Shown in pieces: positions 23,424 through 27,488 of a stretch of 35,087 nt of DNA. The notes under the pieces were generated by a model. That model was not told the origin of the DNA. It was given only the letters and a program-made list of their open reading frames with translations, and searched no databases. The DNA lies in the UHGV virus genome UHGV-0145327. One strand, written 5' to 3'. A program made the translations under genes and the position numbers. Each line of letters opens with the position of its first letter. Position 1 is the first letter of the stretch. This stretch comes from a virus.

Positions 23424-24800
23424 TCATACGTCAGCCCCTTGTGCATATCGTCTGCCACGTGCAGCGGGTGCATTTGATGCTGTGCAAATCTGTCTGGCTT
23501 CATCCTGGTCACATGCAACAAAGTGTCCGTTACAGAACCGCTGGTAAACCGTACCAAGCGAGCCAAAACGGTTTTTCGTCACGATGATTTCAGCAAATGG
23601 CGCGGCGCTACTGTTCTCGTCATATACCGCTTCCCGATAGAGCATGATGATTGAGTCTGCGTCCTGCTCAATGCTTCCTGAATCACGCAAATCTGCGTTT
23701 GTCGGGCGTTTGTTTGGTCGCTTCTCAACATCGCGCGAAAGCTGACTTAGGGAGATCACAGGCGTTTTCAGGTCTTTCGCCATCGCCTTAAGGCTTCCGG
23801 AGATGTGAGCAATTGCGAGGTCGTTGCGATCTGCTTTCGGCTTCTCAATCAGGCCAAGATAATCCGCCATGATGAGTGACAGGTTTGGATTTTCCTGTTT
23901 GTGCCGTTCTGCGATTGAGCGTATTTCTTCGACCGATAACCGCGAGGCATCGACTACCCATACATCCAAATCTGCAAGCTGACTCATGCCGTTAGCAACA
24001 CGCGCCCAGCCCTCGTCATCCATCGATGCAGGATTTCGCAGTACGCTAACCGACATCCTCCCGGCGTTGGCAATGCTTCGCTCTGCAATCTGCAATGCGC
24101 TCATTTCCATTGAGAAAATCAATACTCCGCGCCGGACGTCAGAACCAGGAATAACACGACTTGCAACGCCTTCGGCAATCTTCAGCGCCAGCTCTGTTTT
24201 CCCCATACCAGGACGAGCAGCGATTATCACCAGGTCTTCTGCGTTCATCCCTCCGGTGATGGCGTCAAGTTCTTCGATTCCGGTCTTCAGGGTATCTGAC
24301 TCTTCTCCGTTCCTCAGACGCCTGTCAAGCGTGTCAGTGTAGTCAGTGATGATTTCCCCTAACCGTACCGGTTTAACCTCGTCACGGGGCTTTCTGATGG
24401 CTGAGAGACGCTTTACAAGTTCATCCATCGCCTGACTCGATGCGTCGATGGTTCCGCTCTGAATTGGTTCACGCATTTCATCCATGATTTCCAGCACCAG
24501 ACGGCGGTGATAGTTATCCGCGACCATTCCGGCATATCCCTTCAGGTTTGCGGCACTCGGGCAGTTTTTGCTGGTCATCAGGATTGACGTGAAATGCTCC
24601 TCTCCGCACGCCTCGGCAACCATCAGCGCATCGATTAGGTTTCTGTTTCTCGCCTGCTTGCGAATAACCTCGAAGGCTTTCCGGTAGAGCGGAATTGAAA
24701 ACGCTTCCGGCTCCAGCGTTGCCAGAACGTCACTGGCGGTTGGAGTTAATCCACCAATCAGCAGGCCACCGATAACGCTCGCTTCGATATCTTGTCTCAT
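23424..24800 (-). CDS. Replicative DNA helicase, DnaB family (458 aa; P22 gene 12-like)
   Basis: Walker [19 protein letters not shown] and DnaB C-terminal domain motifs; same length as P22 gp12. Confidence 0.9.
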
Positions 24801-25744
24801 GCAATCCCCCTGTCTGCAAACTTCCCTTCCCGAACTCCCGTTAACGAGTCTTCTCTCAGCAGGTAATCAAAATCAGCCGTCCAGCCCGTGTCGTTGTCTC
24901 CGAAGTAAAACGGCTTGGCCTGATGCACAAACGCCCTGACATACGCTCTGAAACCGTCCACGTTTGGCGTTTTCAGTTGCGGGATGATTTTCTTCAGGCG
25001 ACGTTTGCGTTTCTCGTTGACCGCAACAGCGTGTGGCAGTCTGTCACCGACTTCGGTGTTGTAGGCGTTCAGGAAGGATTCGTAGTCGATTCGTTCTGCC
25101 TTGCGACGTTCAGGTTTAACCTGCCCATCGCCTCCCCCATTGGGGGGTAGGGGGGTATTATTTATATTCTTGTTAATACCTTCTTGTTCATGATGTGCGG
25201 TTGTTTGTGCGGCTTCATGTGCGCTTTCATGTGCGGCATGTGCGCTGAAAGCCGCGCCATTACTGGCTTCGTCATGTGCGGCATCATGTGCGGTTGTTTG
25301 TGCGGCTTCATGTGCGGGTAAATTGTCCATTTTTTGAGCATATTCATGGTAATTTGTGATGGTTATCACACGACCTTTTTGCTTCTCTCCATCAATGGAG
25401 ATCATCCCCTCTTTCACAAAAACCTGAAGCATCCGCTCAACCTGATCACGGCTTGCTGGCTTGCCATGCCTGTCGCATAACTGAAGACCTAAATCAGCTG
25501 CTGTCACAACCAGTTGACCGGGTTGCAGATGCCATTCATGACCTTTGAAATTCGCTTTGTATGGCTTTCTGGCGGCATTCAGGAGAAGGTTTTCCCACAG
25601 GGTGCGAAGATAAACATCTTTCGCCCATGACTGTTTCAGAATGCTCCGGTACAACGGAATGTAACCAGTTTTCTGGTTCTCCATCCTGTTGCTCCTGCGC
25701 TCGTGTGCGGCGCTGAAATCGTAGATTTTTGCTGTATTGCTCAT
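24797..25744 (-). CDS. Replication initiation protein (lambda O-like in role, 315 aa) with an internal His/Ala-rich repeat region
   Basis: Immediately upstream of and overlapping the helicase gene; central repeats [14 protein letters not shown]...[14 protein letters not shown] are encoded by DNA direct repeats; C-terminal ...[19 protein letters not shown]... resembles a conserved phage replication-protein C-terminal domain. Confidence 0.75.
25130..25320. repeat. Candidate replication origin inside the initiator gene: about 35-bp direct repeats with several CATGTGCG(G) units, next to an AT-rich stretch and a C5/G6 inverted repeat
   Basis: catgatgtgcggttgtttgtgcggcttcatgtgcg at 25189-25223 recurs as catcatgtgcggttgtttgtgcggcttcatgtgcg at 25283-25317; further CATGTGCG units at about 25229, 25238 and 25273; AT-rich tattatttatattcttgttaatacc at 25156-25180; CCCCCATTGGGGGG at 25133-25146. 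Confidence 0.5.
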
Positions 25745-25746
25745 AA

Positions 25747-26019
25747 CTACCTGCCTTGACGAAAGACCTTAAGAACATCGTTAAACTGACTTACGGATAT
25801 GTCTTCTTTGAGCAGCTTTTCCAGAAATGCGTTTGGAATGAACGTATATCCCTCCTCTTTTGGTAGAGACGGGAGCAACGCCCTCGCCTCAGCCTTCAGA
25901 AGCTCAGTTCTGGCAACTTTCACAAAAGAGATTTGAGTTCTTTCGTCAATGGAACGAAGGAAGCGCAAGCGCTTGGCTTCTTTGTGTGTATCAGGTGGAT
26001 TAAAGCCTTTGTTTCGCAT
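25747..26019 (-). CDS. Hypothetical protein (90 aa) between cII and the replication initiator
   Basis: ATG at 26019 with GAGGTAATTAT upstream; the longer track ORF (25747..26328) overlaps cII in another frame and is rejected upstream of this start. Confidence 0.5.
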   Translation of the reverse strand: MRNKGFNPPDTHKEAKRLRFLRSIDERTQISFVKVARTELLKAEARALLPSLPKEEGYTFIPNAFLEKLLKEDISVSQFNDVLKVFRQGR

Positions 26020-26041
26020 ATAATTACCTCGTTGGATGTTG

Positions 26042-26335
26042 TTAAAATTCCATTTGTATTTGATCAGAACGCTCGGTTGCCGCCGGGCGTTTTTTATTGG
26101 TGAGAATCGAAGCAACTTGTCGTGCCAATCGAGCCATATCGTCGTCAACGACGCCCCATTCAAGAACAGCAAGCAGCATTGAGAACTTTGGAATCCAATC
26201 CCTCTTCCACCTGCTGATCTGCGACTTATCAACTCCCACAGCTTCCGCTGTCTTCTCAGTTCCAAGCATTGCGATTTTGTTAAGCAACGCACTCTCGATT
26301 CGTAGAGCCTCGTTGCGTTTGTTTGCACGAACCAT
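26042..26335 (-). CDS. cII: Transcriptional activator CII (97 aa)
   Basis: MVRANKRNEALRIESALLNKIAMLGTEKTAEAVGVDKSQISRWKRDWIPKFSMLLAVLEWGVVDDDMARLARQVASILTNKKRPAATERSDQIQMEF matches lambda CII as recalled; the leader AGGAAATACTTACAT-ATG is also lambda-like. Confidence 0.95.
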   Translation of the reverse strand: MVRANKRNEALRIESALLNKIAMLGTEKTAEAVGVDKSQISRWKRDWIPKFSMLLAVLEWGVVDDDMARLARQVASILTNKKRPAATERSDQIQMEF

Positions 26336-26393
26336 ATGTAAGTATTTCCTTAACAAATAAGAAGTTATGCGCATCAACTTATGCGCGTTGTAT

Positions 26394-26436
26394 TCCCGCA
26401 TTTCGGCGGGAATGAGGACCATGACTGTTAAAGAGC
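26394..26436 (-). promoter_or_regulatory. nutR: boxA (CGCTCTTTAAC) and boxB hairpin (TCCCGC-cgaaat-GCGGGA) between cro and cII
   Basis: Read on the minus strand: accGCTCTTTAAcag ... tTCCCGCCGAAATGCGGGAat. boxA precedes boxB as in lambdoid nut sites. Confidence 0.6.
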
Positions 26437-26444
26437 GGTGTTAC

Positions 26445-26669
26445 TTATGCTGCCTGATTCGGTTTTGGAAACAGGTGTGGCAAATCGGGGCGAATTTCGT
26501 AAGCCTTGATCTGCCCTCCAGTGGCGTTAACGATGGCGGTAACTTTCTCTGGAGAGACCAACCCGCCTTTCAGCCATTTGTGTACTGCTGGCTGCGTTAC
26601 ACCACACTTGTCGGCAAGGCGCTTTTGGCTACCGACAATTTTCAAGGCTCGTTGAATTACTAAATTCAT
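26445..26669 (-). CDS. cro: Cro-like HTH repressor (74 aa from MNLVIQRALK)
   Basis: Small HTH protein (QKRLADKCGVTQPAVHKWLKG) transcribed divergently from cI; AAGAGG Shine-Dalgarno 7 nt before the MNLV ATG. Confidence 0.75.
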   Translation of the reverse strand: MNLVIQRALKIVGSQKRLADKCGVTQPAVHKWLKGGLVSPEKVTAIVNATGGQIKAYEIRPDLPHLFPKPNQAA

Positions 26670-26705
26670 GAGCATACCTCTTGTGGTCATTACTTATAAC
26701 CAAAG

Positions 26706-26768
26706 ATAACTCAAGTTATAAAAAATAGCAATAACCTTTGTTATTTTACTTTGGATAACCGTAGTTAT
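26706..26768. promoter_or_regulatory. OR operator cluster: three ATAAC-N4-GTTAT sites between cro and cI (PR/PRM region)
   Basis: ATAACtcaaGTTAT (26706-26719), ATAACctttGTTAT (26731-26744), ATAACcgtaGTTAT (26755-26768). Confidence 0.6.
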
Positions 26769-26780
26769 AGATTTGTGGGT

Positions 26781-27488
26781 ATGAAAACATTCGCAGAAAG
26801 ACTAAATGCAGCCATGAGCTCAGCAGGGGTATCACAATCACAGCTTGCTGACATGGTTGGAATATCTCAGCCAGCCATACAGAAGATGTCGTCCGGTAAA
26901 ACAAACGGATCTCGCAAGATGGTTGAATTAGCCAATGCTTTAAAAGTGCGCCCTGAATGGCTTAGTTCTGGTATTGGTGAAATGAGGGATGGTGCACATG
27001 AAGAACCATCCAATGTCCGTGAGTCATCTTTAAAAGCTGTGGTATGGGAAGACATTAAAAGAAACGATGACGAGTTTGTTGCGTTGCCTCTTCTTAACGT
27101 TTCGCTTTCAGCTGGAAGCGGTAGCTGCGAGCTAGAGGAATCATCGGAGTTCTCTTTGGTTTTCAGAAAGCACTATCTGAAAAAGATGGGAGTATCTGAA
27201 AGATCAGCCAAGCTAGTTAGGGTTGTAGGGCAAAGCATGGAACCAACGCTTCACGATGGCGATGTTGTTGGTGTTAACACGCAAGATACCACCATCAGAG
27301 ATGGTAAAACCTACGCTATTTGCCAGTCTGATTTGTTACGAGTAAAAACATTAATCGCCACCCCTACATCGGTGATAATCAGATCAATAAATCGCGAAGA
27401 GTACCCGGATGAAGTAATGGATAGAGATGAATTTCATGAAACCGTAAGGATTATTGGCAGAGTATTCTGGTCGTCTCATAGTTGGTAA
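26781..27488 (+). CDS. cI: CI-type prophage repressor with HTH and LexA-like S24 autocleavage domain (235 aa from MKTFAERL)
   Basis: HTH QSQLADMVGISQPAIQKM; C-terminal S24 motifs (VVGQSMEPTLHDGDVV Ser, downstream Lys). ATG 26751 is an alternative start but would overlap the third operator. Confidence 0.85.
   Translation: MKTFAERLNAAMSSAGVSQSQLADMVGISQPAIQKMSSGKTNGSRKMVELANALKVRPEWLSSGIGEMRDGAHEEPSNVRESSLKAVVWEDIKRNDDEFVALPLLNVSLSAGSGSCELEESSEFSLVFRKHYLKKMGVSERSAKLVRVVGQSMEPTLHDGDVVGVNTQDTTIRDGKTYAICQSDLLRVKTLIATPTSVIIRSINREEYPDEVMDRDEFHETVRIIGRVFWSSHSW

Follow-up and report, generated by a model that had tools for sequence, protein, structure and literature searches.

The origins of lambdoid phages consist of iterons and an AT-rich tract in the middle of gene O (PMC7466680), and the genes of the initiators lambda O, P22 gp18 and L gp18 contain iterons that differ from one another (PMC8022706). 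Here we describe an array of nine short direct repeats inside the O-like replication initiator gene of UHGV virus genome UHGV-0145327, a phage of the P22-like/lambdoid type. The window is the full 35,087-nt stretch of this genome, and all coordinates are positions in that stretch. Our comparative analysis indicates that the array is likely a replication origin of the lambdoid kind, in which the origin lies inside the initiator gene. An initial annotation of the sequence had named this region a probable origin; gene family, layout, co-variation of the repeats with the initiator and constraint at the DNA level are all in favor of that proposal.

Comparison with described origins

The array resembles the lambda origin in its layout. 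In both, the origin or predicted origin lies mid-O in the linker-coding part of the gene, and the N-terminal domain, iterons, AT-rich tract, right arm and C-terminal domain follow one another in this order. The lambda iterons are annotated inside O, and the N-terminal domain of the window initiator belongs to the same Pfam family, Phage_rep_O. Close relatives of the module of N-terminal domain and iterons are even joined to a right arm of true lambda type (..GAGAATTCTGGCGAATCCTCTGAC) together with a P loader. The iterons themselves are different. Lambda has four 18-19-bp dyad iterons (TCCCTC-N5-GAGGGA), each for an O dimer, whereas the window has nine direct 8-bp cores; furthermore, the window C-terminal domain is not of the lambda type, and its partner is a DnaB-type helicase instead of a P loader. 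The parallel with lambda drawn in the initial annotation thus holds for the layout but not for the iterons, which are 8-bp direct cores at a 12-bp phase rather than ~19-bp dyad-symmetric sites. Dyads were searched for as gapped 6-nt inverted arms, with lambda and P22 as positive controls. The iteron regions of lambda and P22 had 3-4 perfect pairs of arms per 96 bp, the arrays of the window and of Klebsiella had none, and the five near-matches in the window were all located in the spacer between its two clusters of cores. The window array is therefore not of the ~19-bp dyad-symmetric type seen in lambda and P22.

P22 gene 18 and HK97 gene O share with the window gene the C-terminal domain, the AT-rich tract, a CCCCC..GGGGG element and a 458-aa DnaB-type helicase, and P22 has a rep_origin annotated inside gene 18. 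They differ from it in the N-terminal domain and the iterons, which are TTTACC-N5-GGTAAA dyads in P22 and a separate set of repeats in HK97. In Salmonella phage L, six imprecise 11-bp repeats inside gene 18 have been put forward as the origin on the same grounds as those used here (PMC8022706). The window array is set apart from these repeats by core sequence (TGTCCAACGGA in phage L), the L origin itself being a prediction only. The O-like plus DnaB-helicase module shared with P22 and HK97 is the one named Eru2 in Shiga toxin (Stx) phages, in a paper that does not mention iterons (PMC8044961). In the Stx phages 933W and P27, which have six iterons, the origin is coding sequence, so that additional iterons make the initiator longer (PMC7466680). 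The window offers a parallel, as the increase from the usual six cores to nine lengthens its linker. The iterons of 933W and P27 are unlike those of the window in being lambda-type dyads, used with O dimers and a P loader.

Iteron plasmids such as pSC101, R6K, P1 and F, with their Rep/RepA proteins, have direct repeats beside an AT-rich unwinding element and a winged-helix initiator. Their iterons are ~17-22 bp long at a spacing of ~22 bp, lie outside the rep gene and are usually accompanied by DnaA boxes. The window array is similar in that its direct repeats adjoin an AT-rich segment and its initiator is a predicted winged-helix protein. It is different in its 12-bp phase, in being coding and in having no DnaA box nearby: eight one-mismatch matches were present compared to 7.5 expected, with none near the array and none within 1.4 kb. 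Pfam and PDB sequence searches with the 315-aa initiator revealed no homology to plasmid Rep proteins, the PDB search returning nothing at E ≤ 1. The iterons described here are a class distinct from those of the systems above, and apparently an undescribed one. The literature search, which largely did not extend to subscription-journal papers such as those on the HK97, HK620 and CUS-3 genomes, found no description of this core type, and the record of CUS-3, the closest phage record, has no origin annotation across the repeat region of the initiator gene.

Anatomy of the array and its initiator gene

The features of the predicted origin are listed in the direction of the initiator gene, followed by the adjoining helicase gene.

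24797..25744, minus strand: O-like replication initiator gene (315 aa, 948 bp), holding the whole predicted origin
25316..25744, minus strand: coding region of the N-terminal winged helix-turn-helix domain (aa 1-143), the predicted iteron-binding module
25273..25318, minus strand: iteron cluster I, four CCGCACA(T/A) cores at 12-bp spacing (TGTGCGG on the plus strand at 25275, 25287, 25299 and 25311)
25246..25272, minus strand: central spacer between the clusters, coding strand GAAGCCAGTAATGGCGCGGCTTTCA, peptide EASNGAAF
25192..25245, minus strand: iteron cluster II, five (C/G)CGCACA(T/A) cores (TGTGCGS on the plus strand at 25194, 25206, 25218, 25230 and 25239)
25156..25191: AT-rich segment, a predicted DNA-unwinding element from its GC content and duplex stability, directly adjoining the last core
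25161..25171: mosaic junction inside the AT-rich segment, where the module of N-terminal domain and iterons meets that of palindrome, C-terminal domain and helicase
25134..25155: inverted repeat C5-ATT-G6 followed by TA-G6, coding strand CCCCCCTACCCCCCAATGGGGG, an HK97/P22-type right arm
24797..25177, minus strand: coding region of the C-terminal domain (aa 190-315), of the HK97/P22 gp18 type
23424..24800, minus strand: DnaB-type replicative helicase gene (458 aa), analogous to P22 gp12; overlaps the stop codon of the initiator gene

The core reads (C/G)CGCACA(T/A) on the coding strand and TGTGCGS on the plus strand. The nine cores have one orientation, are mostly 12 bp apart and form two clusters (4 + 5), the spacing in cluster II being 12, 12, 12 and 9 bp. 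On both strands of the window there are 19 TGTGCGS sites, nine of which, all on the plus strand, fall within 25194-25317. The expectation from shuffled sequences is 12.4 sites per window for both strands, or ~0.022 per 124 bp of a single strand, and the probability of finding at least nine is ~3e-21. All nine cores are in one frame of the 315-aa open reading frame (ORF), where they read xxC GCA CAw and encode X-Ala-His/Gln. They encode the His/Ala-rich peptide recorded in the initial annotation. The cores occupy gene nt 428-551 (aa 143-184) and thus lie between the N-terminal and C-terminal domains. Tandem Repeats Finder independently reported period-12 arrays at 25206-25237 and 25272-25317. 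A pair of direct repeats of ~35 bp, previously placed at 25189-25223 and 25283-25317, is real and identical at 34 of 35 positions, but the second copy was off by one base and spans 25282-25316.

A terminator-like match at 25207-25224 in the array was discarded, as it has a weak 5-bp stem made by the repeats themselves and the count of such matches was at the level of shuffled sequences. Scanning the whole window against Rfam at gathering thresholds gave no match, so the repeats are not explained by a known RNA element. A scan of 24700-26800 for sigma-70 promoters found none.

The 315-aa initiator matched Pfam Phage_rep_O (PF04492) over aa 20-132 with an E value of 3.2e-15 and a score of 56.9 against a cut-off of 28.7, and it matched phrog_345 (replication initiation O-like) with an E value of 3e-100. 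Its gene is 99% identical to gene O of phages CUS-3 and HF4s, and the identity to that of ~48 Stx2a-converting phages is 98.5%. The C-terminal domain has 97.6% identity to the C-terminus of HK97 O and 60.5% to P22 gp18, and domains of this HK97/P22 type co-occur with a DnaB-type helicase gene. Such a gene is found immediately downstream of the initiator gene in the window, as in the P22/HK97-type module, and its 458-aa product matched DnaB_C (E 9.5e-78) and the DnaB N-terminal domain (E 4.5e-13) in Pfam as well as phrog_19 (E 9e-136). We infer that aa 190-315 form the helicase-recruiting module of the initiator.

The array in related initiators

A scan with an alignment of N-terminal domains, using one genome per species, yielded 63 prophage loci from Enterobacterales with 41-87% identity. 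A scan of viral contigs with the N-terminal domain gave 80 loci, all of them 99-100% identical, and was of no use for examining co-variation. The initial annotation regarded absence of the repeats from functional homologous initiator genes as grounds for rejecting an origin, and this check came out in favor of one. Every locus with at least 63% identity in the N-terminal domain has kept the array (51 of 51), and where the N-terminal domain differs, other repeats occupy the same position in the gene. The usual form in these relatives is two groups of three cores in one frame, separated by a 45-bp gap, and CATCATGAACAAGAA and the AT-rich tract come directly after the second group; the number of cores is 6, 8 or 9.

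The array was found with lambda-type, HK97-type and other C-termini among the 63 loci. Klebsiella and Yersinia phages, whose N-terminal domains are 74-81% identical to that of the window over aa 3-143, have the CCGCACA array at the same gene position together with a lambda-type C-terminus and a P loader. CCGCACA cores were absent from the HK97 and P22 initiator genes, and the N-terminal domains of these two proteins fail to align with that of the window. HK97 and P22 have their own repeats at the array position, followed by the same AT-rich tract and the CCCCC..GGGGG element. The array therefore tracks the N-terminal domain, whichever C-terminal domain and helicase or loader is attached.

The cores vary with the lineage of the N-terminal domain, and the layout is constant. 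They are CCGCACAT or CCGCGCAT in the arrays of closer relatives; more distant N-terminal domains show the same blueprint, including a central spacer with ..CAGTAATGRCGCGG.., with cores CCGATGAA, GGTAACAA and AACCATCC. The five core types on one structural blueprint provide a natural series for the evolution of initiator-origin specificity with coding binding sites.

The central spacer of the window (25246-25272, with ..CAGTAATGGCGCGG.. and the peptide SNGAA) is also present in loci L136, L140 and L142-L146 despite their wholly different cores. Its third codon positions are less conserved than positions 1 and 2 (0.69 compared to 0.79). The spacer is probably a protein-level motif, judging from the codon positions; a role as a further DNA site, such as one for a host factor, is possible. 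In L136 (Martelella alba contig NZ_SZPQ01000041.1), an 81-bp unit of one cluster plus spacer is present in ~3.5 tandem copies at gene nt ~410-700, resulting in four clusters of AACCATCC cores. This amplification suggests growth of the array by duplication of units. Of the database homologues of the N-terminal domain, most are "partial" proteins that end at ~150-210 aa, at the array, which would fit short-read assemblies breaking at repeats.

The AT-rich segment and the right arm

The AT-rich segment is next to the last core of cluster II. The stretch at 25156-25180, described as AT-rich in the initial annotation, has a GC content of 0.16, and the 25-bp duplex that it overlaps is less stable than any other in the window. 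By nearest-neighbor calculation, this duplex (25156-25181) has a stability of -24.9 kcal/mol compared to a mean of -34.9 (standard deviation 2.8), though it is coding. The 40-bp stretch at 25156-25196 ranks sixth, in the top 0.15% of the window. The same AT-rich stretch, with CATCATGAACAAGAA and a GC content of 0.2-0.3, comes after the array in nearly all relatives.

The inverted repeat noted previously at 25133-25146 is present, with corrected coordinates of 25134-25147. It consists of C5 at 25134-25138, ATT and G6 at 25142-25147, and a second G6 follows at 25150-25155. The homologous CCCCC..GGGGG element is present in HK97 and, within the annotated rep_origin, in P22. Tandem Repeats Finder reported two copies of GGGGGGTA at 25142-25157, adjoining the AT-rich tract. 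The coding strand at this element has two C6 runs and then a G5 run, and P22 and HK97 show the same C5..C5..G5 pattern. Three of the five CCC Pro codons of the window initiator gene are within the palindrome element.

A junction between two modules lies at ~25161-25171. HK97-type phages match 25100-25171 only, and Klebsiella/Yersinia-type phages match 25161-25399; domain-wise protein matches agree with this position. The module of N-terminal domain and iterons is common to the Klebsiella and Yersinia phages, and that of palindrome, C-terminal domain and helicase to HK97, ST104 and P22.

We considered the possibility that the cores bind the initiator but serve autoregulation as a transcript roadblock, incompatibility or exclusion, or titration, with replication starting elsewhere. 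Intragenic binding sites could block transcription of distal O and the helicase gene, and cloned lambda iterons inhibit related phages (PMC3349717; see also PMC4488673). The present evidence does not separate binding from initiation. However, the array always directly adjoins a very AT-rich, minimally stable segment, and the same arrangement is the experimental origin in lambda and Stx phages (PMC7466680) and the annotated origin in P22. In the replication region, the array was the only repeat cluster with an AT-rich segment to stand out. It is thus unlikely that initiation occurs elsewhere and that the cores have only such roles, which are in any case compatible with an origin at the array.

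The cores are constrained as DNA

The arrays of the 51 relatives are almost purely CCGCACAT or CCGCGCAT, and the difference between the two is synonymous (GCA or GCG, both Ala). Codon use was examined with a peptide-anchored test, in which genes were classed by residue 100 of the initiator alone and the Ala-[His/Gln] dipeptides of the linker were counted. Genes with Asp100 used GCA in 141 of 146 such dipeptides, and those with His100 used GCG in 120 of 124. The third base of the codon preceding the core Ala was C in 264 of 270 cases, whichever amino acid was encoded. In the remainder of these genes, Ala codons were evenly used. In 18 aligned arrays of the 3+3 form, the 8-bp cores were invariant and the intervening 4 bp varied freely. 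Third codon positions in the two clusters were conserved at 0.91 and 0.89, compared to 0.87 and 0.89 at positions 1 and 2. Since synonymous sites are fixed in the cores, the repeats are constrained as DNA.

These results bear on a second explanation, in which the repeats are a slippage by-product of a His/Ala-rich linker, acting as a flexible or metal-binding spacer, and have no function as DNA. Such a linker would be consistent with an array that is in frame and encodes X-Ala-His-X repeats, and with a copy number that varies between 6, 8 and 9 cores and in the 81-bp amplification of L136, as is expected of slippage-prone sequences. It would not explain why a single Ala codon, GCA or GCG, makes up >96% of core Ala codons compared to ~20% elsewhere in the same genes, why C is retained at the preceding third base, or why the choice between GCA-CAT and GCG-CAT for one and the same Ala-His peptide strictly follows residue 100. 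The amino acids between cores vary freely, whereas the DNA core is constant. Gene conversion was rejected as the cause of the uniformity because it would also have homogenized the 4-bp inter-core positions, which remain variable. We regard a linker by-product as very improbable. Least credible of all is a real overlapping gene in an alternate frame (61 aa, minus strand, 25162-25347; or 45 aa, plus strand, 25184-25321): both ORFs are present in the window, and such a gene would place constraint on synonymous positions in the initiator frame, but these frames are open over the array in only 0-10 of the 51 relatives, depending on the frame, and 8-bp cores with free 4-bp gaps are not codon-like in any frame. 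The ORF at 25162..25347, open in 10 of 51, is an artefact of the repeats, as the initial annotation had it.

Core type and the N-terminal domain

The structure of the N-terminal domain was modeled with AlphaFold2. The predicted local distance difference test score (pLDDT) was ~90 over aa 30-135, and the model contains a helix at 82-88, a helix at 99-111 and a β-hairpin at 115-129, which follows the recognition helix as a wing. Residue 82 opens the first helix of the helix-turn-helix (82-88) in this model, and the first turn of the recognition helix (99-111) includes residue 100. Residue 100 (Asp or His) and residue 82 (Ala/Pro or Ser/Thr/Leu) split the two core types in all 51 sequences. Residues 82 and 100 are therefore candidate specificity determinants on comparative grounds.

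Two Yersinia genes are ~99% identical elsewhere and differ only over gene nt 235-521. This block, whose end coincides exactly with the last core, consists of the codons for the helix-turn-helix and wing together with the iteron array. Since it covers both, the recognition elements and their sites were exchanged as one cassette.

A model for initiation

The anatomy of the array, the constraint on its cores, their co-variation with the N-terminal domain, the instability of the adjacent duplex and the homology of the modules to the lambda, P22 and HK97 origins lead us to propose the following model. The N-terminal winged-helix domain would bind the nine direct 8-bp cores that lie within the linker-coding part of the initiator gene itself. 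The resulting nucleoprotein complex would destabilize the adjacent AT-rich segment at 25156-25191, the C-terminal domain of the HK97/P22 gp18 type would bring the DnaB-type helicase of the phage onto the opened DNA, and replication would start at the array. Because the cores are arranged head-to-tail without dyad symmetry, each is probably bound by one winged-helix domain in a head-to-tail array, as opposed to the symmetric dimer per iteron of lambda.

Several points weigh against this interpretation. Its support is comparative, and binding, unwinding, helicase loading and initiation at the array are predicted steps. The 51 sequences are kin by descent or recombination, essentially two clades plus recombinants, and the counts are not independent; because of this relatedness, the Fisher P value of the codon test is not a literal probability, and the link between Asp or His and A or G could partly reflect co-inheritance. 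A Foldseek search of the N-terminal domain model against the PDB gave weak and generic matches to winged-helix DNA-binding proteins (best E ~0.01) and was used for fold class only, so that the fold search lends the predicted winged helix weak support. The BLASTP match to lambda O was marginal (E 0.005 over 65 aa). As the similarity by fold and BLASTP is weak, homology to the lambda-O family is based on the Pfam and PHROG profiles. Without dyad symmetry, the binding mode of lambda cannot simply be transferred to the array. Finally, the C5/G6 palindrome encodes Pro-Pro...Gly-Gly, and its conservation may be at the protein level.

We also put forward, more tentatively and as a combination that may well not hold in full, a switchable recognition code. 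Asp100 or His100, with residue 82 as partner, would read core position 5 as A:T or G:C; single domains would bind head-to-tail at a 12-bp phase in two clusters of 3-5 cores; and a "helix-turn-helix plus iterons" cassette of ~290 bp would be exchanged as a unit. If the code is true, the replicons would fall into two or more specificities, distinguished by one synonymous change in each repeat. If the cassette is exchanged, origin specificity would be reset between phages, which could matter for co-resident Stx2a prophages. The comparison thereby gives a precise hypothesis on the residues that read a given base and on the 290-bp cassette that determines specificity. CUS-3-like phages of Escherichia coli K1 and many Stx2a-converting phages of O157:H7 have this type of origin and initiator at 98-99% identity, and the regulation of Stx-phage replication is tied to toxin level (PMC8044961). 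An origin within the initiator gene is a textbook idea, and the present results extend known biology rather than overturn it.

Gene order and minor observations

The initiator gene is part of an early-right operon on the minus strand, identified from the ORF list, Pfam and PHROG. Its remaining genes and the divergent repressor gene are listed below.

26751-27488, plus strand: cI-like repressor
26445-26690, minus strand: cro-like gene, early-right operon
26042-26422, minus strand: cII of the lambda type, early-right operon
25747-26019, minus strand: 90-aa ORF between cII and the initiator gene
after the 458-aa helicase gene: ninB, early-right operon

The ORF at the cro position had a stronger Pfam match to YdaS_toxin (E 1.5e-17) than to P22_Cro (E 1.3e-5). 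The 90-aa ORF has the position of P22 orf48 and HK97 gp53; it matched phrog_2519, a family of unknown function, with an E value of 2e-57, and a Pfam search gave no match. A strong terminator-like hairpin, with a 12-bp stem and then a T run (AACGCTCGGTTGCCGCCGGGCGTTTTTTATT), is located at 26066-26093 on the plus strand, antisense to the 3' end of cII. The hairpin had no match in Rfam; it presumably resembles the terminator of the oop antisense RNA of lambda. A full-length relative of the initiator with 62% amino acid identity is encoded in a 2.7-kb GenBank record, OR850084.1, labeled "Staphylococcus phage SA 1298 Kay". The record is 85% identical in nucleotide sequence to the window initiator gene over the C-terminal side and is probably mislabeled or contaminated.

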